The translations under genes were made by a program, and so were the position numbers. Of a stretch of DNA of 55,660 nucleotides, positions 4,681 to 43,090 are shown piece by piece; position 1 is the first letter of the stretch; every line of letters starts with the position of its first letter. Under the pieces are notes generated by a model, which was not told the DNA's origin, did no database searches, and worked only from the letters and a program-made list of their open reading frames with translations. Origin of the DNA: Planctomycetota bacterium (lineage in GTDB: Bacteria; Planctomycetota; B15-G4; JADJEK01); contig JAZDLC010000258.1 of assembly GCA_043802345.1 (NCBI GenBank), forward strand, positions 1 to 55,660. The letters run 5' to 3'.

Positions 4681-4752
4681 CCCGTAGGCAAGCAGGCCTG
4701 CTTCGGCCAGAAGGAGCAGCAGCGGTGCGAGTCGAATGGTCTTGCTCAGCCT

Positions 4753-6312: not shown

Positions 6313-6318
6313 CCTTCT

Positions 6319-6969
6319 CTACCTCTCGATCCGGATTCCGAGCTTCTCCAGAATCCGGCGCAGTTCTCGCCTGAACGTGGGCGACGCATCCTTGCCAAAC
6401 ACCTCGACCAGGCGTGCCTTCTCAGCCGGTCCGAACAGACTCCGGTGCATCTCTACGAACGGAGCCAGCTCCGCGAGAGCATTCCACTTGATGAAAAGCT
6501 CCGGATCACCCACGTTCTTCAGCAGAATCGACCGAATCTCCAGCGCGCGCTTCTTGCTGTCCTTGATCTGATCGGCCTCCAGGAACTCCCGCAGGACCTT
6601 CAGCTTGGCCGCAAAGTCCCGCTCGCCCCGGGCGATCCGGTTGACCACGGTCAGCCGCCCGCTCTCCTGGAAGCGGTCCAGGAACATCAGGTAGCTCACC
6701 CCCACGCTGAACTGCCCCGGCGCCGTCAGCACCACCAACTCCCGTTCGGTCGCGTCCCCGCGGAAGACCTCCAGAACCTCGAAGTGGGCTACCGACACTC
6801 CCCGGCCCGCCAGGATGACCGAGGTCGGCTTCGCCTCGACCACCACTTTCGACTTCTTCAGGGTCTGCTCCCCGAACGTCCGGAACTCGAACCGCTCCCG
6901 CACGACCCTCGGAGTTTCCTCCTGGGCGAACAGAATCCCGGTCAAGAGCAGCAGGCAGCTCGCGAGCAT
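6319..6969 (-). CDS. Secreted hypothetical protein (216 aa)
   Basis: Signal-like N-terminus MLASCLLLLTGILFAQE and coding-type codon bias. It lies 7 nt upstream of the TolC-like gene in the same operon. No family recognised. Confidence 0.6.
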   Translation of the reverse strand: MLASCLLLLTGILFAQEETPRVVRERFEFRTFGEQTLKKSKVVVEAKPTSVILAGRGVSVAHFEVLEVFRGDATERELVVLTAPGQFSVGVSYLMFLDRFQESGRLTVVNRIARGERDFAAKLKVLREFLEADQIKDSKKRALEIRSILLKNVGDPELFIKWNALAELAPFVEMHRSLFGPAEKARLVEVFGKDASPTFRRELRRILEKLGIRIER

Positions 6970-7011
6970 CCCGCGATTGTACAGAACGGCCCCTGCAATG
7001 ACACCGGGCCC

Positions 7012-8652
7012 CTACCGCGCGATTCGCTCCTCCACCGAGAGGATCATCACGGAAAGCGCGGTCTCGTACAGATCGCCGCCCATCGACCCCACCGGATCCC
7101 AGTGGAACGTCTGATTCCAGGATCCGTCCTCATTCTGGGTCGAAAGCAGCTCCTCGGTGGCCGCGGTCTCCCAGCGATCCCAGTCCACTCCTCCCCGGCC
7201 CAGCAGGTCGAGCGCAGCGAAGAAGATCTTGGTCGGCTCCCGGAGCGATTCCTGCCGCAGGTGCTGGAGCAGCAGGTCGGCAGGCGGCTCGTATCGGCCC
7301 GAGTCCCGGACGCTGTCAAACAGCGGATCGAGCGCGGAGGCGCACGCGATCGCGCAGAGCTGGTCACCCGGCGTGAGGGCGAGTCCGGTCGCTGGATCAA
7401 GGTCCACCAGCAGGGCGACGAACGATTGGGCGTCCTCCGCCGCCCGCTCCAGGTCGATCACGGCCGGCACGCCGGCGGCCCGGGCCGTCTCCAGCGCCAG
7501 GGCGACCCAGGGAGCGGTGATGTTGTCCGCGGTCTGGCGCTCCCGGAACTTCCGCCGGGCGCCCAGGTCTTCCAGGCGCTCCAGCGCGTCCGCGAGCAGC
7601 GCCGCATCCGACCCCGGGCTCAGCAGGTAGTGCTCGGCAAACGCCAGGGTCGCCACGGCATGGTTGAACAGGACCACGTCCTCGTCTCCCCGAACGGCGC
7701 CGATGGTCCGATCCGCCGTGACCGAGGCGCGCAGGAAGGAGAGCCCCCGGTCCACATGCTGCCGGTACAGACCGCCGGGAATCCCCCGCTCCGCGTTGAC
7801 CAGGAAGGCCAGCACGCACAGTCCGGTCATGCCGACCCGGGCCTCCCGTTCGCCGTGGAAGGCGGCCGGATCCCACGAGCCATCCTCCTCCTGCGCCTCC
7901 GCCAGGAAACGCAGGCTCCGCAAGACCGCCCGGTCCACCGGGCGATCACCGCGCTGGCCGAAGCGGTGCCGCATGCGGAACCGGGCCTGGACGAACAGGT
8001 TCTCCCGCGAGGTCTGCGCCTTCGCCTCCCGGACCAACGCGGTCGAAAGCGTCTCCTCCGGCGGCTCCGGAACCGGCAGCGGCGAATCGGGCGGCTCGAT
8101 GTACACGTCCTGCGCCCTGGGTGGAGACAGCGACTCCAGAGCCACGAGCGACGGCCGTTCGGACAGTTTCGCTTCTTCCTCCTGGCCCGATTCCGGCCCA
8201 GGCTGCCCTTCCTCGACCCTCTCCGCGGTCGCCTGGACCGCCTCCGGATCAACCTGCCGCGCACTGCTCCACGCCAGGAAGCCCAGGAACGCCACCAGAT
8301 GAATCGCCGCGGCCGTCAGCAACACCCGCAGGCCAAAAGAGGTGGAAACCCGGAATCTTGCGTACGCCGCCAGCGAGGCGACGCGATCGATGAAGCCCGC
8401 TTCACTGAGCAGCTGCTCATCCTCGAGGCGCTGCTCCTGGCCGAGGCGCCGGGTGAGCCGAGCCCGGAACGAATGCGAGGCCGGCTGCTCCGCCACGTTC
8501 CTCACCAGCCGCAGCAGGCGCTCCAGCTCGGAAGCCTCGGCGTCGCAGCTCTCGCACTCGCGGCGATGCTGCTGGAATCCGGCCACCAGGTCGGGATCCT
8601 CCTGCCCCAGCACCAGATGAACCGTCTGGCCCTCATACCTGCGACATCTCAT
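7012..8652 (-). CDS. Anti-sigma factor (zf-HC2) with periplasmic prenyltransferase/terpene-cyclase-like repeat domain
   Basis: It has an N-terminal HxxxCxxC motif (HRRECESC) and a single TM helix (LRVLLTAAAIHLVAFLGFLAW). The C-terminal region carries repeated DGSW motifs (EEDGSWDPAAF, NEDGSWNQTF). Its ATG overlaps the sigma-factor stop (ATGA at 8649-8652). Confidence 0.75.
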   Translation of the reverse strand: MRCRRYEGQTVHLVLGQEDPDLVAGFQQHRRECESCDAEASELERLLRLVRNVAEQPASHSFRARLTRRLGQEQRLEDEQLLSEAGFIDRVASLAAYARFRVSTSFGLRVLLTAAAIHLVAFLGFLAWSSARQVDPEAVQATAERVEEGQPGPESGQEEEAKLSERPSLVALESLSPPRAQDVYIEPPDSPLPVPEPPEETLSTALVREAKAQTSRENLFVQARFRMRHRFGQRGDRPVDRAVLRSLRFLAEAQEEDGSWDPAAFHGEREARVGMTGLCVLAFLVNAERGIPGGLYRQHVDRGLSFLRASVTADRTIGAVRGDEDVVLFNHAVATLAFAEHYLLSPGSDAALLADALERLEDLGARRKFRERQTADNITAPWVALALETARAAGVPAVIDLERAAEDAQSFVALLVDLDPATGLALTPGDQLCAIACASALDPLFDSVRDSGRYEPPADLLLQHLRQESLREPTKIFFAALDLLGRGGVDWDRWETAATEELLSTQNEDGSWNQTFHWDPVGSMGGDLYETALSVMILSVEERIAR

Positions 8653-9251
8653 TCAGGCGCCTCGCTTTCGCCCGAGCCCATCAGGCGCCGCAGATTCTGC
8701 ACCGCCGCGTGGACCCGGGACTTCACGGTCCCGATCGGAATCCCGAGGACCTCCGCCACCTGCTCGTACTTCATTCCCTGACCTCCGGCCAGCGCCAGAA
8801 CCGACTGCTGGATCTGCGGGAGCTGGGCCATGGCAACCTGCAACTGCGCCAGATCCTCCTCGTGGGACAACCGCTCGCCGGGCTGCTCGTCCTCCGCGGC
8901 AAGACGCTTTCCCAGCGAGGGCCCCGCCGGCTCGGCATCACTCTCTTCCGCCCGATCATCCAACGCTCGTTCCTCCGGCCGCACCTTTCGACTCCTGTAG
9001 ACGTCGATCCAGTAGTTCTTCGCGATCCGGAACAGGAACGTCGCCAGCGCCGCATCGGGCGAGTAGGACTCCCGTGCCCTGTAAAGCCGGATGAAGACCT
9101 CCTGCGCGCAGTCCTCGGACAGATGCCGATCGCCCGAGAAACTGAAGAAGTACCCGATGAGCCGTCGCTCGTATCGTTCCACGATCCGGTCGAAAGCGGA
9201 CTCATCGCCCTCGCGCAGCCGAATCAGCAGTTCCGAATCGCGTCGGTCCAT
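8649..9251 (-). CDS. ECF-type RNA polymerase sigma-70 factor
   Basis: 200 aa with region 2 (LIGYFFSFSGDRHLSEDCAQEVFIRLY ... FLFRIAKNYWIDVYR) and a region 4 HTH (MKYEQVAEVLGIPIGTVKSRVHAAVQNLR). Confidence 0.9.
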   Translation of the reverse strand: MDRRDSELLIRLREGDESAFDRIVERYERRLIGYFFSFSGDRHLSEDCAQEVFIRLYRARESYSPDAALATFLFRIAKNYWIDVYRSRKVRPEERALDDRAEESDAEPAGPSLGKRLAAEDEQPGERLSHEEDLAQLQVAMAQLPQIQQSVLALAGGQGMKYEQVAEVLGIPIGTVKSRVHAAVQNLRRLMGSGESEAPE

Positions 9252-9270
9252 TCAAGTCCCGTCCCAAGCA

Positions 9271-9296
9271 AACGGCTCGCGGGCGCATCGGTTCAG
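9271..9296 (-). promoter_or_regulatory. Candidate ECF-type (autoregulated) promoter
   Basis: The minus strand reads TGAACC-N16-CGTT, about 20 nt upstream of the sigma gene ATG (9251), and resembles the GAAC-N16/17-CGT ECF consensus. The spacing to the start codon is tight, so this is weak. Confidence 0.3.
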
Positions 9297-9352
9297 CGGA
9301 AACTGAGGAGTCCGAAGTAATTGCCATGTCCGGACTTGCGCTTGTGGTGCCC

Positions 9353-9919
9353 TCAGAACACGTCACTCAGATCGCGCACCAGCCGATCCAGGCAGTCCCT
9401 CGTGGCCAGACCGAAGGGAGAGTTCCAGTACGCCCCCGACTCCACCTGCTCGACCGTCGGAACCTCGAGCCGGTCGACTCCCGTCACCAGCGTATCCCCC
9501 CTGAGCAGCCCGTCGAGAAACACCCCCTGCCCCTGATCGAGCAACCTGTACGTCATCTCCACCACCGCCCGCCTGCGGTGGCCGATCGACTTCGCCTGCC
9601 CAAAGATCACTCCCTCCGAAGCGTCGTCATCCTGGAAGGCGACGATGGCCGTCTCAAGGTAGTACCGGGCAGCCTGCTCCTCCGCGCACGCCTCGAAGCG
9701 GCCCGTGCGTTCGAGCAACCTCTCCAGCATGGCGCGAGTCGCGTCGGTCAACTCGGCCACCACCGCGATCGGAGACTCGTTCAGCGTCTCCCGCACGATC
9801 ACGGGGGTCCGTCTCTCGATGTTCACAGGTTCGATCGGATCCGGCAAATCCCGGTCCGGTCCCATGCATCCCGAGAGCATCGTCATCAGCAGAAGTCCGA
9901 GCGGCCCGATACGCTTCAT
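9353..9919 (-). CDS. Lipoprotein, function unknown (188 aa)
   Basis: The internal ATG at 9919 gives MKRIGPLGLLLMTMLSGC with a canonical lipobox (LSGC). This ATG overlaps the tsaE stop (ATGA). The upstream part of ORF 9353..10072 lies inside tsaE. Confidence 0.65.
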   Translation of the reverse strand: MKRIGPLGLLLMTMLSGCMGPDRDLPDPIEPVNIERRTPVIVRETLNESPIAVVAELTDATRAMLERLLERTGRFEACAEEQAARYYLETAIVAFQDDDASEGVIFGQAKSIGHRRRAVVEMTYRLLDQGQGVFLDGLLRGDTLVTGVDRLEVPTVEQVESGAYWNSPFGLATRDCLDRLVRDLSDVF

Positions 9920-10395
9920 CTTGCCTCCCAGGCCGTTCTCAATTCCGAGATCCGCCGGGTCATTTCCTCTCCGCCGGGACGGAGCGTCACCCGGCGTCGT
10001 TCTCCAGGCAGGTGTTCGAGGAGGATCGTGAGATCCGGATCCTCGAACGCCCCGGGGAACCTGTCGGCCCATTCAACCGCCACCACGTGCCGAAGCTCCA
10101 GGAATTCTTCCAGGCCGTTGCGTCGAAACTCCTCCTCCTCGCGGACGAAATAGGCGTCGAAGTGGTCCAGAGGGATGCGCGGCTCCGCGTACTGCCTCAG
10201 GATGTTGTACGAGGGGGAGCGGACCTGCCGCTCGTTCCCGCCAAGACCCCGGACCAGTCCGCGCACGAAGCAGGTCTTGCCGGCGCCCAGTTCTCCCAGC
10301 AGCAGCAGCAATTCACCCCCTGAAAGGAGGGCCGCCAGCAGGCCGGCCAGCCGCTCCGTGTCGCTCCTGGAGCCGGTCTCGACCGTGAGGGTCAC
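9916..10395 (-). CDS. tsaE: tRNA t6A37 threonylcarbamoyl-adenosine biosynthesis ATPase TsaE
   Basis: 159 aa with a P-loop in typical TsaE context (LLLGELGAGKTCFVRGL) and a downstream HFDAY-type segment. The GTG start overlaps the thiL stop (GTGA). Confidence 0.85.
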   Translation of the reverse strand: MTLTVETGSRSDTERLAGLLAALLSGGELLLLLGELGAGKTCFVRGLVRGLGGNERQVRSPSYNILRQYAEPRIPLDHFDAYFVREEEEFRRNGLEEFLELRHVVAVEWADRFPGAFEDPDLTILLEHLPGERRRVTLRPGGEEMTRRISELRTAWEAR

Positions 10396-11348
10396 CGCTT
10401 GTCCCCTGCGTCGCCCGCGTCAAAGGAATGCTCGAAGCCACCGGCGGGAAGCGGCGACTCCAGGCCTTCGCGCGAGATCCGGCAACCCTGGCCCGGGTCG
10501 GTGCAGCCGCCGATGCGCGAGATCAGCGGGCCGAGATCCGGGTCCGCGAGCAGCTCGCTTGCACGGCCGGGCGGGAGGGCAAACAGGAGCTCGTAGTCCT
10601 CGCCATCAAGAAGGGCATGCAGCAGTCCCTCGCGCCCGTCCGCCCGCCCGGCCCGCGCCGCGTCCGGCGAAACAGGAATCGACTCCGCCTGAAGGACCGC
10701 GCCCACGCCGCTGGCCCGGCAGAGCCGCGGGAGGTCGGCCGCCAACCCATCCGAGAGGTCGATCATCGCGGAGGGACGATACCGTTGGTTCAGCAGCAGT
10801 CCCTCAAGGACGCGCGGCGTGAAGCTCAGGTGGTGGCCCAGCATCGACCCGCCCAGCCGCCCGGTGACGAACAGGGAATCGCCCGCGCGAGCGCCGCTTC
10901 TCCTCACGGCCGGAGCCGTCCCCGACCGGCCGGCCACCGCCACGTTCAGGACCAGCGGTCCGGGCGAGCGCTTGGTATCGCCTCCCGCCACCACGCAATC
11001 GAACGACTCCGCCAAGCCCACCAGGCCTTCGAGCAACTCCCGGCCGTCGCCCGGACCGGCGCCTCCGGGAAGGGCCACCGAGACGAAGCAGCACCACGGT
11101 TCGACCCCCATGGCCGCGATGTCGCTCAGGTTCTTGGCCATCGCCTTCCGACCGGCCCGCCGGTAGCCGCACTCCTCCAACCGGAAGTCGATTCCATCCA
11201 GGGCCATGTCGGTGGTCAGTGAGATGACGCGCCCCTCCGCGTCGAGCAGGGCCGCGTCATCGCCAATCCCCAGCAGGATGTCCGGGCCGGCCGCTTCGCG
11301 AGCGCGGGCTTCGAGCAGCCGCAGGAAATCGCTTTCGGAGAAGGACAT
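10392..11348 (-). CDS. thiL: Thiamine-monophosphate kinase
   Basis: It carries the GIGDDAALLD motif and AIR-synthase-like PurM-fold features (DIAAMG, VAGGDT). The start is taken at the internal ATG 11348 (MSFSESDFLRLLE), which abuts the upstream gene stop. The 80-codon extension to 11588 overlaps that gene. Confidence 0.85.
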   Translation of the reverse strand: MSFSESDFLRLLEARAREAAGPDILLGIGDDAALLDAEGRVISLTTDMALDGIDFRLEECGYRRAGRKAMAKNLSDIAAMGVEPWCCFVSVALPGGAGPGDGRELLEGLVGLAESFDCVVAGGDTKRSPGPLVLNVAVAGRSGTAPAVRRSGARAGDSLFVTGRLGGSMLGHHLSFTPRVLEGLLLNQRYRPSAMIDLSDGLAADLPRLCRASGVGAVLQAESIPVSPDAARAGRADGREGLLHALLDGEDYELLFALPPGRASELLADPDLGPLISRIGGCTDPGQGCRISREGLESPLPAGGFEHSFDAGDAGDKR

Positions 11349-11830
11349 CAGAAGGGAAGCACTCCGAAGACCCGGGCCAGGACCTGACCCGGCGAGAGGA
11401 TGGCACCCGCTTCCCGTCGAAGCGGATTTTCCACCAGGACCAGCAACTGCCCCTCCTGGAGCGGCAGCCGGTCGAGGACCTGGTCGGGAGCAGGATACCA
11501 GCTCTCCGTGCCCGAGCGGCGGACGCGTCCCTTGATCAGGTCGAGTTCCAGACTCTCGCCAAAGGTCGCCACCAACCGGCCGATGCATGTCACCTGCCGC
11601 TGGTCCCGGTACAGGACCGCGTCCCCGCTCCTTGGCGGACGATCCTGGCCGAACAGCCGGACCAGCAACCGGCTCCCTCCCGGATAGTCGAACAGGACCG
11701 GTTCCCCGGCGGGCACGGCGATCACCGTGATCCCGGAGAGCCCGTGCCAGAGGAGCAGCAGCACCGCCAGCAGCGCCACGATGCGGATCGGCCGGATCAG
11801 CCTTCTGGGGGAGATCCTCGGTATCCTCAA
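11348..11830 (-). CDS. Small membrane-anchored hypothetical protein (about 160 aa), possibly a degenerate S26/S24 peptidase-like barrel
   Basis: This is the in-frame part of ORF 11348..12214 downstream of thiE. The putative TTG start overlaps the thiE stop (cTTGA). It has a TM anchor (IVALLAVLLLLWHGL). Segments such as GDAVLYRD ... CIGRLVATFGESL resemble the signal-peptidase box around the catalytic Lys, but no Ser/Lys dyad is evident. Confidence 0.45.
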   Translation of the reverse strand: MRIPRISPRRLIRPIRIVALLAVLLLLWHGLSGITVIAVPAGEPVLFDYPGGSRLLVRLFGQDRPPRSGDAVLYRDQRQVTCIGRLVATFGESLELDLIKGRVRRSGTESWYPAPDQVLDRLPLQEGQLLVLVENPLRREAGAILSPGQVLARVFGVLPF

Positions 11831-12453
11831 GGGCGCGCCTCCTCCACCAGCATCCTGAGTCTGGCCGTGGCCCGGCCCGGATCGGCCGCCGCGGTCACGG
11901 CCCGCATCACCGCGACACCATCCGCGCCGGCCCGCATGGCCGCCGCCGCGTGCTTCAGTCCGATCCCGCCCAGGGCGACGACCGGCAGGCTGATCAAGGA
12001 CGCGAGCGCGCGGAACCGCTCCAGCCCCAGGGCCGGGAGCGGCTTGCTCGGCACCGCGAACAGCGGCGAGAGGGTGATGTAGTCGCACGCACCGAACCAG
12101 TCCGGATCGAGCGGATCGTGTCCGGAGAAGCCGAGCAAGGGAGCAGGCCCGACACGTTCCCGAACCCGGGCCGGCGGGTCGTCTCGAAAGCCGAGGTGCA
12201 ACCCCGAGAGACATGGGCTGGCCGCAAGCTCTTCATGTCCGCTGCAGATCAGCAGCGCGGAGGAGTCGTCCGCCCGCGGCGAGAGCGCGAGGAGCAGCGA
12301 CTCCAGCTCCTCGCGCGGCCGTGACCGCTCGCGAATCCAGAGCGCCGAAGCGCCGTTCTCCAGGCAGGCGAGGCACAGCTCCAAGAGCCGCGTGAGATCC
12401 CCTTCGCCCGGCGTGATGACCACCAGGCGAAGTCGCCCAGCGGCCCGGCTCAT
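11827..12453 (-). CDS. thiE: Thiamine-phosphate synthase
   Basis: 208 aa with ThiE-like motifs (RLVVITPG, CDYITLSPLFAVPSK, LPVVALGGI). Its ATG overlaps the upstream stop (ATGA 12450-12453). Confidence 0.8.
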   Translation of the reverse strand: MSRAAGRLRLVVITPGEGDLTRLLELCLACLENGASALWIRERSRPREELESLLLALSPRADDSSALLICSGHEELAASPCLSGLHLGFRDDPPARVRERVGPAPLLGFSGHDPLDPDWFGACDYITLSPLFAVPSKPLPALGLERFRALASLISLPVVALGGIGLKHAAAAMRAGADGVAVMRAVTAAADPGRATARLRMLVEEARP

Positions 12454-14570
12454 GTTTCTTCGATCGGGCCTGGCTCAGCCTCCGGCTGATCGACCTGCTG
12501 CCCCAATCCCTGGTCGAGAAAGAGCCCTCCCTTGGAGAGTTCCTGCTCCAACGTCGCGAGGTCGGCGCTCTCCTCCACCACGATGGCGGTGGGTGAAAGA
12601 CGTTCCGAGTTCACCTCCTTGGCGGAGAGCGCGCGCAAGACCCGGTCCATGATCTCCCGATTGCGCCCGCGCAGCACGACCATCTTCCGCGCGCTCACGA
12701 ACCGCACCTTGCCCGCCCATTCCTTGACCGAGTAGACGACATTCTGGGGGATGGTGCCCCGGGCGTTCTCCGAGAGCACTCTCAGAATCTCGGACACGTC
12801 CAGCCCCTCCGCCACCGCCTTCTCGATCGACGATGCGGTCAGGCGGTAGCGATAGACCGAGTCGGAGCTCTGCCGCTCCGCGAATCGATCCAGTCGGGTG
12901 ATCAGATCGTACGTCTCGCCCCCTTCCGGGAAGAGCAGGACCTCGAAGTCGGGGTTGACCATCAGCGGCCGGCCGGCCTGCGCCAGGTCGTCCGGAAGCG
13001 CCCGGCCGAGGGCTCTCGCGCCCAGCGGGGTCAAGCGCACGCAGACCGCCACGCTGTCCTTCACTCCCAGGTCGACCAGCCCCATCAGGTAGAGCCGGTC
13101 CCTGAGCCACTGGAACAGCCACTGCGCCAGACCCGCGGCATCTCGCATGACGGCGGTGGGCGCATACTGGTAACGGTTCTGGAAGGCGTCCCGCACATGG
13201 TCCTCTTCCAGCCGGGCAAGGTACGCGTTCCGCGCGGCGAGCGGCAGAGCCATCACATGATGGAAGGTGCCGACCTGCTGGGTGGCCAGGATCTCGAGCA
13301 ACTGATCCCGCAACCTTGGGGCGTGGAAGGAGTCGCCGTCCTTGAGCTGCTCCCGGAAGGCGAAGTCGAGCAGGACCCGGAGCTTCTTCTCCAGCTTCTC
13401 CGTCTCCCACATCCGCCCCTTGACGGTGATGTGCAGGTTGCGGTCCTTCCTGCCTTCCACCAGCTTCCTCGAGACGCAGAAGTCGTAGATGTACTGAAAG
13501 GAATCGATCCCCACCAACTCCGACTTCTTGGCCAGGATGAACTGGTCGATCAGCTTCTTCGTCACCGTGCGGTAGATCTGGCCGTTCAAGGTCAAGCGCA
13601 CGCGGTTGTGCGCCACGAACGAGAGCAGATTCGAGATGTCGGAGATCATGTCGACACCACACGTCTTGATGTCGTCGATGTCCTTCGCGGAGTCGGGCCC
13701 GACTTCCCGGCGGTGCGCGGCGACCACCTCGTCGAACAGGACGAGAGTGTCGTCAAAGTGGTTGATGCCGTACTCGCCGAGGGCCAGATGCCGGAGAGTC
13801 CCCAGATAGAGCCTCTCGATCTCGCACTTGAATCGCTTGCGATCCCATCTGGGAGCAGATCCGCGAACACGGTCGTACTGCGACTTCGGTATGAACCCGC
13901 CTGTCTCCTTCACGGACACGCCAACCGCCTGCTTCAGGTCGTCGTCCAGGAGCCCCAGGCGATGGACGATTTCGGCAGGGGTGCAGAGCAGGCGGATCGC
14001 CTCATCCAGGTCGCTCAGCGGTCTCGGTTCGGAGAGAACCTGCGACATCCGTTCCAGCTCGGCCGGACCGAGCCGTCTCAGGAAGACCCGCAGGCTGAAC
14101 ATCTCCTTCGGCGTGCTCTCGTCGTCCCAGAGGAAGGCGTGCAGCACCTCTCCCAGATCTCCTGGAATGGAGAAGGAAGTGTCGCCGTTGCGCTGGCTGC
14201 CGGGAGGATCGAGCTGGAACACGAAGCCCCGCTTCTGCAGGGCGTTGAGCGCGGCTTCCACCTCGTACTGGCTCATGTAGTTGAACAGGCGCGACCGGAC
14301 CACGTTCTCCCTGCTCACGGTGAACGCCCGATCCCGCAGCAGGAACCGGAGCAGATCGACCAGCTTCTTGGAGAGGAACTTGAGCCGCTTGCGGACCGAT
14401 TCATCATCGGTCATCTTCACGACCAGTGAGTCGATCAGCGCATCGGAAGTTTTCGGCGCGGGACTCCCGCCGTCCCAGAACGAGTAGAACTCCCGCAATT
14501 CCTCACGGGTCCGCTCCCGGAGCAGCCGCTCCAGGCTAGGGGCCCTGGGACCTCGCGTCGTGTCGCTCAT
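12450..14570 (-). CDS. XPB-associated large uncharacterised protein (helicase-associated-domain type, about 706 aa)
   Basis: Long ORF with good coding bias immediately downstream of, and overlapping, the XPB helicase gene. From memory, bacterial XPB genes (for example in actinobacteria) are followed by a protein of similar size and unknown function. I recognised no catalytic motif by eye. The start is ambiguous: ATG 14570 gives a 35-nt overlap and ATG 14612 a 77-nt overlap. Confidence 0.75.
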   Translation of the reverse strand: MSDTTRGPRAPSLERLLRERTREELREFYSFWDGGSPAPKTSDALIDSLVVKMTDDESVRKRLKFLSKKLVDLLRFLLRDRAFTVSRENVVRSRLFNYMSQYEVEAALNALQKRGFVFQLDPPGSQRNGDTSFSIPGDLGEVLHAFLWDDESTPKEMFSLRVFLRRLGPAELERMSQVLSEPRPLSDLDEAIRLLCTPAEIVHRLGLLDDDLKQAVGVSVKETGGFIPKSQYDRVRGSAPRWDRKRFKCEIERLYLGTLRHLALGEYGINHFDDTLVLFDEVVAAHRREVGPDSAKDIDDIKTCGVDMISDISNLLSFVAHNRVRLTLNGQIYRTVTKKLIDQFILAKKSELVGIDSFQYIYDFCVSRKLVEGRKDRNLHITVKGRMWETEKLEKKLRVLLDFAFREQLKDGDSFHAPRLRDQLLEILATQQVGTFHHVMALPLAARNAYLARLEEDHVRDAFQNRYQYAPTAVMRDAAGLAQWLFQWLRDRLYLMGLVDLGVKDSVAVCVRLTPLGARALGRALPDDLAQAGRPLMVNPDFEVLLFPEGGETYDLITRLDRFAERQSSDSVYRYRLTASSIEKAVAEGLDVSEILRVLSENARGTIPQNVVYSVKEWAGKVRFVSARKMVVLRGRNREIMDRVLRALSAKEVNSERLSPTAIVVEESADLATLEQELSKGGLFLDQGLGQQVDQPEAEPGPIEET

Positions 14571-16281
14571 CGTCACTCGCTTCGTTCCGCTGGATGTCCA
14601 TCTGGTCCACATCCCGGATCTCGTAGGAGTACCCCTGTTCGGTCAGGAAGAGCTGCCGGTGATTGGCGAACTCCGACTCCTTCGATTCGCAGGTAACCAG
14701 GCTGTAGAACCATGCTGGCGATCCATTCGATTTCGGCCGCAGGATGCGCCCCAGGCGCTGGGCCTCCTCCTGGCGGGACCCGAAGGTCCCGGAGACCTGA
14801 ATCGCCACGGCTGCATCTGGCAGGTCGATTGCAAAATTTCCTACCTTAGAGACCAGGAGCAGCGGAAGCTCACCTTCTCGGAACAACTTGTAGAGCCGCT
14901 CTCGCTCCCGATTCGGTGTCTTGCCGGTGATCAGTGGCGCCTTTAGCCGGATCGCAAGTTTCTCCAGTTGATCTATGTACTGTCCGATTATCAACTTCCG
15001 TTCGTCCGGATGCTGCTCGATCAGCCATTCTGCCACCGCCTCCTTGGCGGGATTCTCCGAAGCCATGCGAAACTGGGTCCGAGCCGAACTGCTCTGGTAC
15101 TCGTGCTTCATGTCGTCCGGGATCGGAATCCGAACCTCGACACAGATGGCCCGGGCGATCCAGCCCTGTCGTTCCAGGACCTTCCATGGGACATCACACT
15201 TCTTCGGCCCGATGAGGGAGAAGACTTCATCCTCTTTGTGGTCTTCCCGGACCAGCGTGGCCGTCAGTCCCAGGCGCCTGGTGGCCTGGATCTCGGCGGT
15301 CACGCGGAAGACCGGCGCCGGCAGCAGGTGGACCTCGTCGTAGATGACCAGGCCCCAGTCGTTGGCCGAGAAGAGGTTGAAGTGCACGAACGGGGTGTTC
15401 TTCTTCCTGCGGTAGGTCAGGATCTGGTACGTGGCGATGGTGACCGGCCGCACTTCCTTCGTGTCGCCGGTGTACTCGCCGATCTGGTCCTCCGGAATGT
15501 CGGTCTTGTCCAGCAGTTCCGCCCGCCACTGGCGCACGGCCACCACGTTGGTGGTGAGAATCAACGTCTGGGAGCGCACCCGGTCCATCACGCCGAGGCC
15601 GACCACCGTCTTGCCCGCTCCGCAGGGCAGCACGATCACTCCGGAGCCGCCCCGCTCTGATCCGCCGGCGTAGAACACGTCCGCGGCATCCCTCTGGTAC
15701 GGCCGCAGCCGGAACGGCTCGCCGCTGCGCATGACCTCGCGCAGTTGGAACTGGAACGGCGCCCCCGGCGCATATCCCGCGAGATCCTCCACCGGGTAGC
15801 CGATCCGGATCAGCGCCTGCTTCACCTCGCCCCGGTACTCAGGCGGAACCTCGATGCTGTCTCCCGTGGCCGGCTTGCCCAGGAGCTTGCGGATCGCCGG
15901 ACTCTTCGTGACATCGTTGAGCAGCTTCGGTTCGGTCGAGGAGAGGACGATCCGTTCTCCGATCCTCTCCAGCCGCAGCAGACCGAACTTGCGAATGTTG
16001 TCCCGCACGTCCCGGTCGATGTTCGGGGGGACCGGATAGCGCGACCGGTCCTGAAGAAAAGCGAGGATGGTGTCCGCGTCCAGGCCGGCAGCCGCGGCGT
16101 TCCAGATCGAGAGCGGAGTGATGCGGTAGGTGTGGAAGAACTCCGGCGACTTCTCCAGCTCGGCGAAGCTGGACAGAAAGTCCCGTGCCTCGGCGAACCC
16201 GGGGGCGTTCACCTCCAGCAGGACGGTGCGGTCGCCCTGGACCGTCAGAGGCTTCGCGCCGGTCTCCGGATCGTGGCTCAT
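14536..16281 (-). CDS. xpb: XPB/Ssl2 (ERCC3/Rad25)-type SF2 DNA helicase
   Basis: 581 aa. The N-terminal damage-recognition-like domain reads LLEVNAPGFAEARDFLSSFAELEKSPEFFHTYRITPLSIWNA. It has Walker A LPCGAGKT, a DEVH box (IYDEVHLLP), motif III with the XPB RED signature (GLTATLVRED), and a C-terminal RecA2 domain. Confidence 0.9.
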   Translation of the reverse strand: MSHDPETGAKPLTVQGDRTVLLEVNAPGFAEARDFLSSFAELEKSPEFFHTYRITPLSIWNAAAAGLDADTILAFLQDRSRYPVPPNIDRDVRDNIRKFGLLRLERIGERIVLSSTEPKLLNDVTKSPAIRKLLGKPATGDSIEVPPEYRGEVKQALIRIGYPVEDLAGYAPGAPFQFQLREVMRSGEPFRLRPYQRDAADVFYAGGSERGGSGVIVLPCGAGKTVVGLGVMDRVRSQTLILTTNVVAVRQWRAELLDKTDIPEDQIGEYTGDTKEVRPVTIATYQILTYRRKKNTPFVHFNLFSANDWGLVIYDEVHLLPAPVFRVTAEIQATRRLGLTATLVREDHKEDEVFSLIGPKKCDVPWKVLERQGWIARAICVEVRIPIPDDMKHEYQSSSARTQFRMASENPAKEAVAEWLIEQHPDERKLIIGQYIDQLEKLAIRLKAPLITGKTPNRERERLYKLFREGELPLLLVSKVGNFAIDLPDAAVAIQVSGTFGSRQEEAQRLGRILRPKSNGSPAWFYSLVTCESKESEFANHRQLFLTEQGYSYEIRDVDQMDIQRNEASDDERHDARSQGP

Positions 16282-19200
16282 GCGGTGTGCTCCAATTCGG
16301 ATACCGACCGGGATTTTGTCAATTCCTGCCTGAGGCGTTGCCCGGTGTGCGATGCTCCGCAGGCCGCGACATCTTCCGGAGTTCCCTGCACGACCAGCCT
16401 GCCGCCCCGGAGACCTCCTTCAGGCCCGAGGTCGATCACATGGTCCGCGCACTTCACGACGTCCGGATTGTGCTCGATCACCAGCACGGTGTTGCCGCCG
16501 TCCACCAGTCGGCCGAGCACCGCGACCAGGCGAGCCACATCATCCAGATGCAGCCCCGTGGTCGGCTCGTCGAGCAGGTAGAGCGTCTCTCCCCGGGCCG
16601 GTCCCGCCAGCTCCGAGGCCAGCTTGACTCTCTGGGCCTCGCCACCCGAGAGGGTGGTCGCGGACTGGCCCAGCCGCAGGTAGCCCAGGCCCACGTCGTC
16701 CAGAAGACGCAGCGTTCGCCGGATTCTCGGGTGGTTCCGGAAAAACTCCAGGGCCTCGCAGACCTCCATCTCCAGGACGTCCGCGATCGACTTGCCGCCA
16801 AACGTCACGCCCAGCGTCTCCCGCTCGAACCGTTTCCCCTCGCACGCCTCACAAGTCACGTAGACATCCGACAGGAAGTGCATCTCCACCTGCACCATCC
16901 CCCTTCCCTCGCACGCCTCGCACCGCCCTCCGGAGAGATTGAACGAGAAGCGTCCCTTCTGGAAGCCTCTCATGCGCGCCTCGGGCGTGGCGGCGAAGAC
17001 CTCCCGGATGCGGTCGAAGATTCCGGTGTAGGTGGCGGGATTCGAGGATGGCGTCGGCCCGAGCGGAGACTGGTCCACCACCGCGAGGTTCCGCACCCTC
17101 TCTGAAATCGAGAGGGACTGGAACGTCCCCCGCAGATCCCGGTCGCCCCGCAGCCGGCGCCGCACCGCCGGCTCGAGCAGGTCCATCACCAGCGTCGACT
17201 TGCCCGACCCGGACACGCCGGTCACGCAGGTCATGGCCCCCGCCGGGATGCTCACGTCGAGCGACCGCAGATTGTGCAGGCACGCTCCCTCCAGCCGGAT
17301 CGCGGTCTTGCTGGTGTCCCGCCGGGCCGCGGGCAGGGGGACCTGCTTCTGATTCCGCAGATACGCTCCGGTGAGGGAGCGCGGATCGTTCTCCACGTGC
17401 GAGACAGGGCCCGCGGAAACGACCTGCCCGCCCCGATGTCCAGCGCCCGGGCCGATGTCGATCAGGTAGTCCGCAGCCCGGATCACGTCCAGATCGTGCT
17501 CCACCACCAGGATCGTGTTCCCGAGCTGCTTCAGGTTCTCCAGGGTCTCGATCAGGCGCGCGGTGTCCCGGGGATGGAGGCCGATGGTCGGCTCGTCCAG
17601 CACGTACAGGACTCCCACGAGGCGGTTTCCGAGCTGGGTCGCGAGCCGCAGTCGCTGCGCTTCCCCTCCGGACAGGGTCGAGGAGCGGCGATCGAGCTGC
17701 AGGTAGTCGAGCCCGATCTCGTTCAGGACCTCGATCCGGTTCTGGATCTCCTTCAGGATCTCCCTGGCGATCTCGCCCCTGGAGCCTTCCAGCTTCAGCT
17801 CCCTGAAGAAGCGGAGCGCCTCCTCCACCGTCAGGCGGGAGAGCTCCCCAAGGGTCTTGCCGCCAAGACGGAACGAACGGGAAAGCGGATTGAGCCGCTC
17901 TCCATGGCAAGCGGGACACTCCCCCTCCACCATCAGGGGATGCAGCCGCTGGCGCCACCACCTCCCCTCGCCGGGAACCTGGTACTTCGCCTCGAACATG
18001 CCGCAGATCCCGGCCCACTTGACGTCGAACGAGTACTCCCTCCGGGAGTGGCGGGAGTTGCGCACCACCTCGACCCGGACCGGATCGGGGTGCCCCCTCA
18101 GGATGATCCGCCGGACTGCCTCCGGCAGGTCCCCAAAAGGCGCATCGAGATCGAAGTCATGCCGCTCCGCCAGGGCGCTCAAGACGCGGCTCACGCCGAA
18201 GTGACGTCTCGAGAGCGTCCGTTTCCAGGGAGCCACCAGCGCTCCCTTGAACAGGGGGCGGCCCGGATTCTCGATCAGCCGGTCCTCGTCGCAACGCTCC
18301 AGCCGTCCCAGCCCGTCGCATTCCCCGCAGGCGCCCAGATGCGAGTTGAACGAGAACAGGCGCGGGTGCGGCTCCTCGGCCAGACGAATGCCGTGCGCCG
18401 GGCAGGCCGGCTCCCTGGTGAACAGTCGCTCCTCTCCGTCCTGGTCCCTCACCAGCGCCAGGTTGTTGCCACGGCGGTACGCCTGCTCGAACGACTCCGC
18501 GAGCCTGGTCCTGGAGGAGCCGCGCACCAGGACGCGATCGACGATCAGATCGATCCGCCGGACCTCGGCGAGCCTTCTCGGCGGCGCATCCTCAAGGCGC
18601 AATTCCTCCCCATCCAGCGCGTAGCGGACGAACCCCTCCTTCAGCAGCTCCTCCCGGATCTCAAGGAAGCGGGCGGGCCGCTCCAGCGGCTGCCGGCCGC
18701 CCAGGCTCTTCCGGTAGAGGGGCGCCAGCAGATGGATCTTCCGTCCCGGGAACCGGGCGACGGTTTCCCGCGCGGCGAGACCGGGAGGCGATGCCTCCAG
18801 CACACGGCCGCACTCTGGACAGTGTGCGGTTCCCACGCGGGCGTACAAGACCCGGAGGTAGTCATGGATCTCGGTGGAAGTCGCCACGGTGGAGCGCGGG
18901 TTTTTCGAGGCCGCCCGCCGGTCGATCGCGACGGCCGGCGAGAGGCCCTCGATCAGGTCGACCGGGGCGCGGTCCATCCTGGAAAGGAAGCGCCGGGCGT
19001 AGGTCGACATCGATTCCACGAACCTGCGCTGAGCCTCGGAGAAGATGGTGTCGAAGGCCAGGGAGGTCTTGCCGGAACCGGACACGCCGGTCACCACCGT
19101 GAAGGAGCCCCTGGGAATCTCCACGTCCAGCCGCTTCAGGTTGTTCACGCTGGCCCCGACCACCCGCAACGGTACCTCTCCTCCGGGTCCGGACTCCTTC

Positions 19201-22058
19201 ACCACCGGGCTTCGGTTCGGGGAAGGAGGCAACAGGTATTCCTTCAGCAACCGGCCCGTCCACGACGTCTTGCTGCGCATCGCCTGCCGTGGCGTGCCGT
19301 AGAAGACCACTTCGCCGCCGCCCTTCCCCCCCTCCGGTCCCAGGTCGATGATGCGGTCGGCCGTCTTGATCACGTCCATGTTGTGTTCGATCACCACGAC
19401 CGTGTTGCCGGAGTCGACCAGCACAGCGAGCGCGGACAGCAGGCACTCGATGTCGGCGAAGTGCAAGCCGGTGGTCGGCTCGTCCAGGAGGTACAGGGTG
19501 CTCCCGGTGCCGGGCCGTCCCAGTTCGCGGGCCAGCTTCAGCCGCTGGGCCTCGCCCCCCGACAGGGTGGTCGCCGTCTGGCCGAGCCGCACGTACCCCA
19601 GGCCCACGTCACACATCGTCTTCAAGACCCGGCCCAGCTTCGGATGGGCCTCGAAGAAGGCCGCCGCCTCGACGACCGTCATCTCCAGCACCTGGCGGAT
19701 GTTCTTCGAGCGGTATTCGACCTCCAGCGTTTCCCGGTTGTAGCGCAGCCCGCCACACTCGTCACACGGGATCTCCACGTCCGCCAGGAACTGCATTTCC
19801 ACGACCTTCACGCCGGCTCCCCCGCATTCCTCGCACCGGCCGCCCGCCACGTTGAAGGAGAAGCGTCCCTTGAGATAGCCTCGCGCCTTCGACTCGGGCA
19901 GCATCGCGAACAGGTCTCGAATGTGGGTGAGGGCCCCGCTGTACGTGGCCGGGTTCGAACGAGGTGTGCGCCCGATCGGCGCCTGACCGATCTCGATCAC
20001 CTTGTCGATCCGCTCGGCCCCCTCGATCCGGTCGTGTTCTCCCACCGGCTCCCGCGCGCCGTGAAGGTCCCTTGCCAGCGCCCGCTTCAGCACCCGGTCC
20101 AGCAACGTCGACTTGCCGGAACCGGACACGCCGGTCATGACCACGAAGCATCCCAGCGGGATGCGCACGTCGATGTTCTTCAGGTTGTGGTGCCGGGCTC
20201 CCCGGACGATCAGCTCACCACGGTTCGCCTGCCGCGTCTTCCGCGGCATCGCGATGCTCCGCTCGCCTCTCAGGAACTGCGCGGTCACGGACGTTGCCGA
20301 CCTGAAGACCGCTTCCGGCCGCCCGCTGGCGACCACGTGTCCCCCCTCGTTCCCCGCTCCCGGCCCGATATCGACCAGGAAATCGGAGGCGAGCATGGTG
20401 TCCCGATCGTGCTCCACCACCAGCACCGTGTTCCCGCGGTCCCGGAGCTGCTGCAGGGTCCGGATCAGGCGGTGATTGTCGCGCTGGTGCAAGCCGATCG
20501 ACGGCTCGTCCAGGACATACAACACCCCCTGAAGCTGGGAGCCGACCTGGGTGGCGAGCCGGACTCTCTGCGCCTCGCCGCCCGACAGGGTCCGGGCGCC
20601 GCGATCGAGCGGCAGGTACCCCAGCCCCACATCCGCGAGGAAGCGGAGCCGCGAGCGGATCTCCCGCAGGACCTCCCGGCCGATCTGTTCCTCGGCCGGG
20701 CGCAGCTCGAGTCCGGAGAACCACTCGCACAGCTCCTCCACCGTGGCCGCGGACAGGTCGCTGATGGCGCGGTCGCGGAAGGTGACCGCCCGCGCTTCCG
20801 GCCGCAACCTCGTGCCCTCGCAGAGGCCGCAGACCACGCGCGACATGTACTTCTCGAGATGGGGCGTGCGAGTCACCTTGTACGCCCGCTCCATCGAGGG
20901 GATCAGCCCCCTCAGCGGCCGGTGGTCCGAGCCGCGAACGGTGCGCCCGCTGCTGCCGTCCACATATTCCCAGCTCAGGCGCAGCTTCCTCGTGCCCGAA
21001 CCGAACAGCAGGACATTGCGTTGTTCCTCCGTCAGATCCTTCCAGGGCGTGTCGAGGGAGAAGCGGAAGGCGCTGGCGACCCTCTCCAGCGACTCCGGCC
21101 CGAGCCGCGAGTAGGTCACATAGCCGGTCCTGGAGGTGGTCGCGATCGCCCCCTCCCGGATGGAGAGGTTCTCGTCCGGCACCAGCAGGCGCGGATCGAA
21201 TCGCTGGCTCATGCCCAGTCCGGAGCAACTCCTGCAGGCGCCATACGGTGAGTTGAAGGAGAAGAGCCGCGGCTCCAGCTCGGGAAAGTCGAGTTCGCAG
21301 TCGGGGCAGGCGAGCCGCGAGGAGAACAGCGCGTGCTCCTCGCCGATCAGCGCTGCCACCACGCCGTCCGCCAGCTTGAAGGCCGCCTCGACCGCCTCGG
21401 CGAGCCGGCCGCGGCGCTCCGCAGTGGCGCGCAGCCGATCGACCACGACCTCGATGGTGTGCTTCTGGTACCGCGAGAGGCTGATTTCCTCGTCCAGGCG
21501 GCGCACGGTTCCGTCGATTCGGGCCCGCACGAACCCCTTCAGCCGCAATCCCTCCAGATCCTTGCGATACTCCCCCTTGCGGCCCCGAATGATCGGCGCC
21601 AGCACCTGCACCGTGCCCCCCTTGGCCTGGCCCAGGAGCCGGTCCGCGATCTGATCCCGCGTCTGCGCCACCAGCCCCCGGCCGCATTTCGGGCAGTGCG
21701 CCTCCCCCAACCTGGCGAACAGGAGCCGCAGATGGTCGTGGATCTCGGTGATGGTGCCGACCGTCGAGCGCGGGTTCCGGTTGACCGTCTTCTGATCGAT
21801 CGAGATGGTCGGCGAGAGCCCGTCGACCCGGTCGACCCTCGGCTTGTCCAGATTCCCCAGGAACTGGCGCGCGTAGGCGGACAGCGACTCGATGAACCGC
21901 CTCTGTCCTTCCTGGAAGATCGTGTCAAAGGCGAGCGACGACTTCCCAGACCCGGAGACGCCGGTAATGGTCGTCAAAGCCGACCTGGGAATCCGCAGAT
22001 CGATGCTCTTCAGGTTGTGCTCACGAGCACCTTCTACGACAATCTCGTTGAGGGACAT
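16278..22058 (-). CDS. uvrA: Tandem-fused excinuclease ABC subunit A (two complete UvrA units in one 1926-aa polypeptide)
   Basis: There are four Walker A motifs: GVSGSGKSS near residue 33, GVSGSGKST near 643, GVSGSGKTS near 991, and GVSGSGKST in the last quarter. There are four LSGGEAQR signatures, and CxxC zinc modules occur in both halves. Unit 1 is about residues 1-945, a P/S-rich linker spans about 946-962, and unit 2 runs from about 963 to 1926. The stop overlaps the XPB ATG (ATGA 16278-16281). Confidence 0.9.
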   Translation of the reverse strand: MSLNEIVVEGAREHNLKSIDLRIPRSALTTITGVSGSGKSSLAFDTIFQEGQRRFIESLSAYARQFLGNLDKPRVDRVDGLSPTISIDQKTVNRNPRSTVGTITEIHDHLRLLFARLGEAHCPKCGRGLVAQTRDQIADRLLGQAKGGTVQVLAPIIRGRKGEYRKDLEGLRLKGFVRARIDGTVRRLDEEISLSRYQKHTIEVVVDRLRATAERRGRLAEAVEAAFKLADGVVAALIGEEHALFSSRLACPDCELDFPELEPRLFSFNSPYGACRSCSGLGMSQRFDPRLLVPDENLSIREGAIATTSRTGYVTYSRLGPESLERVASAFRFSLDTPWKDLTEEQRNVLLFGSGTRKLRLSWEYVDGSSGRTVRGSDHRPLRGLIPSMERAYKVTRTPHLEKYMSRVVCGLCEGTRLRPEARAVTFRDRAISDLSAATVEELCEWFSGLELRPAEEQIGREVLREIRSRLRFLADVGLGYLPLDRGARTLSGGEAQRVRLATQVGSQLQGVLYVLDEPSIGLHQRDNHRLIRTLQQLRDRGNTVLVVEHDRDTMLASDFLVDIGPGAGNEGGHVVASGRPEAVFRSATSVTAQFLRGERSIAMPRKTRQANRGELIVRGARHHNLKNIDVRIPLGCFVVMTGVSGSGKSTLLDRVLKRALARDLHGAREPVGEHDRIEGAERIDKVIEIGQAPIGRTPRSNPATYSGALTHIRDLFAMLPESKARGYLKGRFSFNVAGGRCEECGGAGVKVVEMQFLADVEIPCDECGGLRYNRETLEVEYRSKNIRQVLEMTVVEAAAFFEAHPKLGRVLKTMCDVGLGYVRLGQTATTLSGGEAQRLKLARELGRPGTGSTLYLLDEPTTGLHFADIECLLSALAVLVDSGNTVVVIEHNMDVIKTADRIIDLGPEGGKGGGEVVFYGTPRQAMRSKTSWTGRLLKEYLLPPSPNRSPVVKESGPGGEVPLRVVGASVNNLKRLDVEIPRGSFTVVTGVSGSGKTSLAFDTIFSEAQRRFVESMSTYARRFLSRMDRAPVDLIEGLSPAVAIDRRAASKNPRSTVATSTEIHDYLRVLYARVGTAHCPECGRVLEASPPGLAARETVARFPGRKIHLLAPLYRKSLGGRQPLERPARFLEIREELLKEGFVRYALDGEELRLEDAPPRRLAEVRRIDLIVDRVLVRGSSRTRLAESFEQAYRRGNNLALVRDQDGEERLFTREPACPAHGIRLAEEPHPRLFSFNSHLGACGECDGLGRLERCDEDRLIENPGRPLFKGALVAPWKRTLSRRHFGVSRVLSALAERHDFDLDAPFGDLPEAVRRIILRGHPDPVRVEVVRNSRHSRREYSFDVKWAGICGMFEAKYQVPGEGRWWRQRLHPLMVEGECPACHGERLNPLSRSFRLGGKTLGELSRLTVEEALRFFRELKLEGSRGEIAREILKEIQNRIEVLNEIGLDYLQLDRRSSTLSGGEAQRLRLATQLGNRLVGVLYVLDEPTIGLHPRDTARLIETLENLKQLGNTILVVEHDLDVIRAADYLIDIGPGAGHRGGQVVSAGPVSHVENDPRSLTGAYLRNQKQVPLPAARRDTSKTAIRLEGACLHNLRSLDVSIPAGAMTCVTGVSGSGKSTLVMDLLEPAVRRRLRGDRDLRGTFQSLSISERVRNLAVVDQSPLGPTPSSNPATYTGIFDRIREVFAATPEARMRGFQKGRFSFNLSGGRCEACEGRGMVQVEMHFLSDVYVTCEACEGKRFERETLGVTFGGKSIADVLEMEVCEALEFFRNHPRIRRTLRLLDDVGLGYLRLGQSATTLSGGEAQRVKLASELAGPARGETLYLLDEPTTGLHLDDVARLVAVLGRLVDGGNTVLVIEHNPDVVKCADHVIDLGPEGGLRGGRLVVQGTPEDVAACGASHTGQRLRQELTKSRSVSELEHTA

Positions 22059-22236
22059 CGGTGCGGCTGTCTAACCGGTGCGCGGCGCCGAGCTCCTTTC
22101 CTTCTGATGGTCGACCCAACGATCAACATGTTTCTCTCGATCAGAGGGAAGCGGTTGATACTACTGCCTCCGGTCCGCGCGGTGGAAGGGTGTTGCCGGA
22201 AGAATCTCCAGACTTGAGAGGAGCCTGCCGACCCTG

Positions 22237-38884: not shown

Positions 38885-39016
38885 TCGCGCTTCCTCCCGA
38901 TTCGCTCCCTGTCCGTCGCTGGGGTGAAGCCGAATCTGGCACGGGAGGGGTTGGGATTCAAGGCGGTTGTCGTGGGGACGGGCGTCCTGGATTCCGAGGT
39001 CTCGTCACCTTGTCTT

Positions 39017-39044
39017 TTGGGTCGGGCTGGTCCGGGCCTACAAT
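39017..39044 (+). promoter_or_regulatory. Candidate sigma-70-type promoter, possibly giving a leaderless mRNA
   Basis: TTGGGT-N16-TACAAT ends 7 nt before the ATG at 39052, so the predicted transcription start falls at or next to the start codon. Motif match only. Confidence 0.3.
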
Positions 39045-39051
39045 CGGCGTG

Positions 39052-43089: not shown

Positions 43090-43090
43090 C

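Follow-up and report, generated by a model that had tools for sequence, protein, structure and literature searches.

The p52 subunit of TFIIH recruits XPB by way of its clutch, which is homologous to the XPB N-terminal domain and forms a pseudo-symmetric dimer with it (PMC6422496). XPB also occurs in bacteria, and that of Mycobacterium tuberculosis (Rv0861c), biochemically characterised as a 3'->5' helicase and annealing enzyme, was considered in 2012 to be probably independent of any TFIIH-like complex; homologues of other TFIIH subunits had not been identified in bacteria (PMC3353954). In the same work, the XPB N-terminal domain is regarded as unrelated to the archaeal DRD and is described as missing from most archaeal XPBs. 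The UvrA of Planctomycetes, for its part, is known to consist of two uvrA genes fused head to tail (PMC8567305, Front Microbiol 2021). The locus described here occurs on a 55,660-nucleotide (nt) stretch of a Planctomycetota bacterium (contig JAZDLC010000258.1, assembly GCA_043802345.1), the whole of which is called the window. There, a tandem-fused uvrA is followed on the minus strand by an XPB gene and by the gene of a 706-amino-acid (aa) protein, hereafter the partner. Fused UvrA and bacterial XPB were already known; new are the p52/Tfb2-like identity that predicted fold and partial sequence similarity assign to the conserved neighbour of XPB, and the clade-specific, tightly packed putative operon in which both genes lie behind uvrA. 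The features of the locus are as follows.

16278-22058, minus strand: tandem-fused uvrA-uvrA, 1926 aa (open reading frame, ORF, with NCBIfam and Pfam matches)
~19185-22058, minus strand: N-terminal UvrA module, a complete class I UvrA
~16278-19184, minus strand: C-terminal UvrA module, likewise complete class I and part of the same single chain
16278-16281, minus strand: ATGA, overlap of the uvrA stop and the XPB start (direct sequence reading)
14536-16281, minus strand: XPB, an ERCC3/Rad25-type SF2 translocase/helicase, 581 aa, with an N-terminal domain and two RecA-like domains
14536-14570, minus strand: 35-nt overlap of the XPB end and the partner start (direct sequence reading)
12450-14570, minus strand: predicted p52/Tfb2-like XPB partner, 706 aa (AlphaFold2 model, Foldseek, broad profile)
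~12981-14570, minus strand: N-terminal ca. 530 aa of the partner, predicted repeats of winged-helix type
12531-12965, minus strand: C-terminal clutch-like domain of the partner, aa ~536-680 (PF13625, profile matches)

The XPB helicase and its p52/Tfb2-like partner

The partner is annotated in databases as a "helicase-associated domain-containing protein", and its only significant Pfam match is PF13625, over C-terminal residues 536-658 (E 8e-18), with no nuclease family detected in Pfam. Its AlphaFold2 model, built from a 22-sequence alignment (mean pLDDT 83, pTM 0.67), shows winged-helix-type units of helices and strands in a row and, at the C-terminal end, an alpha/beta domain. In a Foldseek comparison with the PDB, the top 18 matches all corresponded to TFIIH p52/Tfb2 chains from human, yeast and Chaetomium thermophilum, with E values from 9e-11 to 7e-6, a probability of 1.00 and 348-563 aligned columns (the top matches include 9pd3_D, 8ebu_D, 6nmi_D, 7o4i_2 and 6trs_A/B). 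These were followed by XPB chains, aligned through their N-terminal domain over ca. 160 columns, and other multi-winged-helix proteins, such as Pol III C82, AlkZ and the nickase N.BspD6I, ranked beneath the TFIIH chains. The isolated N-terminal half of p52 (6tru_A) matched the partner separately, with a probability of 0.96. The partner and p52/Tfb2 differ in how their domains are placed relative to each other, and the TM-scores between them are accordingly low (0.16-0.36).

Profile searches brought partial support from the sequence itself. Searched against the PDB, a profile restricted to planctomycete partners (A1) retrieved only the XPB N-terminal domain (human XPB 52-197, E 4e-7). A broad profile of 72 diverse family members (A4) reached C. 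thermophilum Tfb2 (E 3.5e-5), human p52 (2.2e-4) and yeast Tfb2 (8e-4), the p52/Tfb2 chains as a whole ranging from 3.5e-5 to 1e-3, in a short match of ca. 30 residues confined to the clutch (human p52 residues 346-373, C. thermophilum Tfb2 300-329). The partner is therefore described here as p52/Tfb2-like by predicted fold, with partial similarity at the sequence level, and its clutch-like domain as homologous, by profile comparison, to both the XPB N-terminal domain and the p52 clutch. The sequence-only reading had listed the partner as uncharacterised; this does not hold entirely, since it carries a recognisable C-terminal PF13625 domain and the p52/Tfb2-like features given above.

When compared to the XPB-p52(-p8) part of TFIIH, the XPB of the window has the same N-terminal domain, RED motif and two RecA-like domains, and the partner resembles p52 in its overall layout, with the winged-helix repeats first and then a clutch that is homologous to the N-terminal domain of XPB. 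The two situations differ in that the partner exceeds p52 by ca. 250 aa and is not recognised by the Pfam Tfb2 model, that no XPD, p62, p44, p34 or p8 was seen in the locus, and that the pair is encoded behind a bacterial UvrA. TFIIH p52 binds the XPB N-terminal domain, stimulates the XPB ATPase, and also binds p8 and p34. By analogy with TFIIH, we infer a complex in which the clutch-like domain of the partner would pair with the XPB N-terminal domain, holding XPB and regulating its ATPase, so that the two proteins would constitute a two-subunit TFIIH-like module; the winged-helix repeats in the N-terminal part of the partner may bind DNA or another protein. The pair thus offers a concrete candidate two-protein complex for reconstitution.

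The archaeal XPB-Bax1 pair, mentioned in the sequence-only reading, has a different kind of partner. Archaeal XPB is likewise encoded beside a dedicated partner protein, but the partner of the window has no nuclease domain and is p52/Tfb2-like rather than Bax1-like according to Foldseek and profile results; moreover, most archaeal XPBs lack the N-terminal domain of which the C-terminal domain of the partner is a copy (PMC3353954). Nor did any Bax1 structure appear among the top 50 fold matches.

The XPB of the window scored 844 bits against NF045503 ("DNA repair helicase XPB", cut-off 610) and displays in Pfam an N-terminal Helicase_C_3 domain (PF13625, XPB/Ssl2 N-terminal domain, aa 12-135) as well as ResIII and ERCC3_RAD25_C. 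The GAGKT, DEVH and TATLVRED (RED motif) sequences noticed at first sight were all found. The N-terminus, by contrast, had been taken as DRD-like, and corresponds instead to the PF13625 domain, the one that binds p52 in TFIIH. Identity to XPBs from many bacterial phyla ranges from 53 to 79%. As in M. tuberculosis, we are dealing with a bacterial XPB composed of an N-terminal domain and a helicase core, but according to the mycobacterial work no partner or TFIIH-like complex is known in bacteria (PMC3353954), whereas the window XPB has a conserved p52-like partner and a link to UvrA. What XPB does in bacteria has been a question ever since it was discovered there, and the protein has been assumed to act alone (PMC3353954), a picture that a p52-like partner would change. 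No later paper identifying this partner or a bacterial p52 was found in the searchable literature, and the XPB/partner pair is apparently undescribed.

Two sets of apparent XPB-partner fusions were discarded. The 1216-aa protein P0027, from an ENA contig of 16108 bp, is a frameshift artefact in which a truncated XPB with an out-of-frame C-terminus precedes the partner frame. Long ORFs spanning XPB and the partner in three planctomycete loci (L005, L007 and L060) are stop-to-stop frames left open in high-GC DNA.

Distribution of the pair and of the uvrA-xpb-partner trio

The occurrence of these genes was assessed by scanning one genome per species with an XPB alignment, which returned more than 595 matches, 80 loci being kept and their six-frame ORFs scored with HMMER. 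For the second-round partner profile, 64 loci were informative (at least 2.5 kb of downstream sequence), and 38 of these had a partner-like ORF in the vicinity of XPB, usually directly downstream and on the same strand. The phyla concerned include Planctomycetota, Gemmatimonadota, Chloroflexota, Bacillota, Acidobacteriota, Verrucomicrobiota and others. An exhaustive search with the partner profile retrieved 4036 clusters (50% identity) at E <= 1e-3 and 212 at E <= 1e-30, the weaker matches including XPB N-terminal domains. Judging from gene neighbourhoods, XPB and its partner form a widespread bacterial two-gene module, and since the pair occurs in many phyla without UvrA, the linkage to UvrA is specific to one clade.

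Three loci from archaeal-labelled metagenome-assembled genomes (MAGs), one of them Asgard, namely L067 (labelled Ca. Thorarchaeota), L070 and L089 (labelled uncultured archaeon), carry an XPB of bacterial type, 57-58% identical to that of the window, with a partner-like ORF 1.7-3.5 kb downstream; these are MAG labels and contamination is possible. "TFIIH-like" gene clusters have been reported in Asgard and Theionarchaea (PMC9258230). The partner is relevant to the ancestry of the XPB-p52 core in TFIIH, and the archaeal-labelled loci may be so as well. A further partner-like protein, truncated to 343 aa, occurs at 5626-6654 of L093, the Singulisphaera acidiphila plasmid pSINAC01 (NC_019893.1), where it adjoins an IS66 transposase; this copy is probably a gene fragment.

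Relatives of the partner protein were retrieved from Planctomycetota MAGs. The complete trio was found, in addition to the window, in 14 other Planctomycetota loci (L001, L003, L005, L007, L010-L014, L035, L044, L060, L090 and L091). In the 80-locus set, UvrA lies directly upstream of XPB in eight cases (L010-L014, L035, L044 and L060), all labelled Planctomycetota, Phycisphaerales/Phycisphaeraceae or Planctomycetia, so that the adjacency is not unique to this genome. The tandem uvrA, xpb, partner and thiE genes occur in this order in L001, L003, L005 and L007, whose partners are 73%, 45%, 38% and 35% identical to that of the window, respectively, and the genes upstream of uvrA differ among these four loci although the trio is kept. 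The same trio, followed by thiE, thiL and tsaE, is present in L091, a 5.29-Mb single-contig genome. Elsewhere among Planctomycetota, L024 has XPB and the partner with no UvrA within 10 kb upstream, and loci of Gemmatales type lack UvrA but contain XPB, in some cases together with the partner.

The junctions within the trio are tight. In the window, direct reading confirmed that ATGA at 16278-16281 joins the uvrA stop to the XPB start codon, and in each of the 13 loci examined the two genes overlap in the same manner, as ATGA, GTGA or TTGA. With this 4-nt overlap recurring in 13 of 13 loci, the arrangement is not a chance layout. The XPB stop codon (TAG, 14538-14536) lies within the partner frame, which is open from 14612 (720 aa) and for which the ATG at 14570 yields the 706-aa product, in agreement with the database protein P0001. 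The overlap between XPB and the ca. 706-aa protein, noticed earlier, was thereby verified; it measures 35 nt in the window as opposed to 4 nt in most relatives. No promoter-like site was detected inside the module by a promoter/terminator scan, which also returned nine weak terminator-like sites within the module (5.2 +/- 2.3 expected), none of them at a gene junction. Overall, the proposal of a three-gene module stands as far as a tightly packed, one-strand, conserved unit is concerned; the XPB/partner pair by itself is widespread without UvrA.

In L090 (GCA_046349655.1, JAXMBY010000086.1), UvrA-UvrA-XPB occurs as a single 2512-aa ORF (6001-13539), in which the XPB part is intact, the junction is cleanly in frame and there is an unconserved linker of ca. 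30 aa. This sequence may represent a natural UvrA-UvrA-XPB fusion. However, if the contig were wrong by 1 nt in the UvrA tail, which is GC-rich and unconserved, the true sequence would have a stop codon 8 nt ahead of the XPB ATG, and the case weighs little because it comes from a single draft MAG contig with this possible assembly error.

Upstream of uvrA, a comparison of 12 loci revealed no common regulatory motif and no LexA-type box. A "-10"-like TAGTAT occurs in the window at 22158-22163 (minus strand), ca. 100 nt before the uvrA ATG, with TAGGAT in the close relative L001; more distant loci have no counterpart of this element and a scan with the sigma-70 consensus was negative.

The tandem UvrA

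The product of the fused gene scored 2520 bits against the NCBIfam equivalog NF001503 (class I UvrA, NF001503/TIGR00630; cut-off 1147) in two full-length stretches, the best of which aligned aa 4-942 with profile positions 4-941 of 943; the fusion noticed in the sequence-only reading, 1926 aa in length, is thereby confirmed. Pfam detected UvrA_inter (PF17760, E 2.7e-48) and UvrA_DNA-bind twice each, UvrA_inter being the UvrB-binding domain that sets class I UvrA apart from class II (UvrA2/DrrC). The chain contains four Walker A, four LSGGE signature, four Walker B and four H-loop motifs, both halves being complete and each having zinc modules with CxxC pairs. The halves are 45% identical to one another, and UvrA chains of the PDB matched the tandem protein at E = 0. 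Against NF001885, which represents the long UvrA of Chlamydia type, the protein reached 1318 bits for a cut-off of 3054 and therefore falls outside this chlamydial family. The 120 closest relatives are all 1830-2512 aa long and, with the exception of one Armatimonadota MAG, labelled Planctomycetota.

The window protein thus shares with the fused UvrA of other Planctomycetes, and with the long UvrA of Chlamydia type, a head-to-tail fusion and a length about twice that of E. coli UvrA, the difference being that in the clade of the window xpb directly follows the fused gene. When compared to the canonical UvrABC system, its modules are likewise complete class I UvrAs including the UvrB-binding domain, but they are arranged as a single-chain tandem, and their gene belongs to a putative operon with a eukaryote-type translocase module, uvrB and uvrC being absent from the window. 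The tandem UvrA is not a special sensor. Fused UvrA occurs throughout the phylum (PMC8567305), and in the complete genome of Aquisphaera giovannonii it is present with no XPB nearby; since it is the published, normal UvrA of Planctomycetes and is found away from XPB, the window protein is an ordinary, phylum-typical class I UvrA and not a specialised one. All four UvrABCD proteins were detected in the proteome of another planctomycete, Tuwongella (PMC8567305). With two UvrB-docking domains retained, there is no reason to think that UvrB has been abandoned, and the tandem UvrA presumably still serves UvrB and UvrC.

One asymmetry between the halves was observed. In the first zinc module of the C-terminal half, the second Cys pair reads CPAH (CxxH; window ~18290-18310, minus strand; aligned with residues ~251-254 of the N-terminal half). 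The CxxH form is found in the window and its closest relatives, and CxxC in the N-terminal module and in more distant relatives. The site adjoins the UvrB-binding domain.

Readings of the locus and its surroundings

We favour, with moderate confidence, the view that the locus is a housekeeping repair operon on the chromosome of a Phycisphaerae-type planctomycete, and that the XPB/p52-like module takes part in UvrA-initiated repair or acts alongside it. In this scheme, the tandem UvrA, with four ATP sites and UvrB docking kept in both modules, would find lesions; the pair, placed directly behind uvrA in this clade and presumably co-expressed with it, might for example open or translocate DNA at lesions found by UvrA. 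It is this position behind uvrA, with the co-expression it implies, that suggests an action in or alongside UvrA-initiated excision repair. To our knowledge, this clade-specific uvrA operon is the first genomic-context hint tying bacterial XPB to that pathway.

The alternative that survives best is co-transcription without functional coupling, whereby a single ancestral rearrangement would have become fixed in a lineage with compact, overlapping operons and the pair would have a job of its own, e.g. on replication, transcription or R-loop intermediates, or in strand annealing. The observations that weigh against our preferred reading are largely those that fit this one. The 72 other loci of the 80-locus set have XPB without UvrA; in L008, a 5.97-Mb contig of a planctomycete, XPB stands alone; and the fused UvrA of Aquisphaera has no XPB beside it. 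Besides repair genes, the conserved block contains genes of thiamine and tRNA modification that are unrelated to repair: thiE, thiL and tsaE are as well conserved in it as the trio, and thiE overlaps the partner through ATGA. Since these genes share the block and its overlapping junctions, translational coupling is not evidence for a protein complex. Furthermore, uvrA of L091 overlaps an unrelated upstream gene, that of an inositol phosphatase, the upstream regions of the loci have no regulatory motif in common, and neither uvrB nor uvrC is found in the window. As regards the partner, the Pfam Tfb2 model (PF03849) matched, at a lax threshold, only one of 22 family members and non-significantly so (E 0.14). 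A functional coupling to UvrA is plausible, a hand-off from UvrA to XPB is a conjecture from gene order, and the adjacency may be frozen synteny in a compact genome. On the other side, both neighbours are nucleotide excision repair proteins in their own domains of life, which makes an accident unlikely (an argument from prior expectation rather than from computation), the adjacency persists through changes of the upstream flank and down to 35% partner identity, and one contig (L090) shows UvrA-UvrA-XPB as a single ORF. Weighing both sides, we regard an uncoupled operon as somewhat unlikely.

The preferred reading may also be extended to a bolder proposal, in which the single-chain UvrA dimer would physically bring a minimal XPB/p52 module of TFIIH type to damaged sites, working next to UvrB or, with certain lesions, replacing it, and in which the bacterial pair, also seen in MAGs labelled Asgard or archaeal, would have given rise to the eukaryotic XPB-p52 core or be its closest relative among prokaryotes; as a whole this is speculative and we consider it improbable. 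More doubtful still is the strict version, according to which the tandem UvrA loads XPB and the partner at lesions in place of UvrB, as a hybrid of bacterial and eukaryal-type excision. Gene order with its conserved 4-nt overlap and the possible natural fusion in L090 would be consistent with it, as would the opening of lesions by XPB and p52 in eukaryotic nucleotide excision repair (PMC6422496). Yet fused UvrA is phylum-wide and also found away from XPB, and the UvrB-binding domain is kept in both halves, so that a hand-off to XPB "rather than" to UvrB, one of the two options put forward, is unsupported. Pfam and motif analysis found in UvrA and XPB no extra domain that would fit as a dedicated docking module, the module has no nuclease and its partner is not Bax1-like, UvrB and UvrC are expressed in another planctomycete (PMC8567305), and the L090 fusion is one MAG contig with a possible 1-nt assembly error.

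A surveillance system against phages or foreign DNA, made of a UvrA-like ABC ATPase, an SF2 helicase and an adaptor, had also been envisaged and is very unlikely: family-level matches do exist in PADLOC-DB v2 (UvrA to mad3, E 4e-171; XPB to PbeA, E 9e-20), but mad3 and PbeA belong to different systems and the matches reflect the general likeness among ABC ATPases and among SF2 enzymes, no PADLOC model matched the partner, UvrA exceeds the curated UvrA equivalog cut-offs, the module has no nuclease or other effector domain, the synteny is of a conserved housekeeping type devoid of mobile-element genes, and searches with the partner gave no phage match and a single plasmid match, the truncated copy mentioned above. 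The identity of XPB across phyla (53-79%) also argues against this possibility. Such cross-phylum conservation is unlike that of fast-evolving defence genes.

Downstream of the trio, the partner is followed in the window by thiE (thiamine-phosphate synthase; 11827-12453, minus strand; Pfam TMP-TENI, E 1.6e-29), whose start overlaps the partner stop as ATGA at 12450-12453. This gene comes after the partner in nearly all trio loci, with thiL and tsaE next wherever downstream sequence is available (9916-12453, minus strand, in the window; loci L001, L003, L005, L007, L010-L014, L035, L060 and L091). In L044, tsaE directly follows the partner. In the window and in L013, L044 and L060, an ATGA joins the partner stop to the start codon of the gene behind it. 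Outside the clade of the window, thiE was not found beside XPB/partner pairs.

Other genes of the window, whose GC content is high (63-70%), include those of an ECF sigma factor, an outer-membrane efflux protein, a sulfatase, fliF/fliG/fliI/fliN, a sigma-54 activator and a histidine kinase, and no mobile-element genes were found around the locus. From this gene content the locus appears to lie in ordinary chromosome with housekeeping surroundings. The flagellar genes (fliN-like, fliI ATPase, fliG and fliF) form a cluster beside a sigma-54 response regulator and a PAS histidine kinase (41561-48959 and 50086-52754, both on the minus strand). The sulfatase gene (38869-41016, plus strand) coincides with the sole strongly positive GC-skew bin. 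Finally, two long antisense ORFs on the plus strand, at 3958-8781 (1607 aa) and 17274-21251 (1325 aa), lie opposite real genes and are typical high-GC artefacts.

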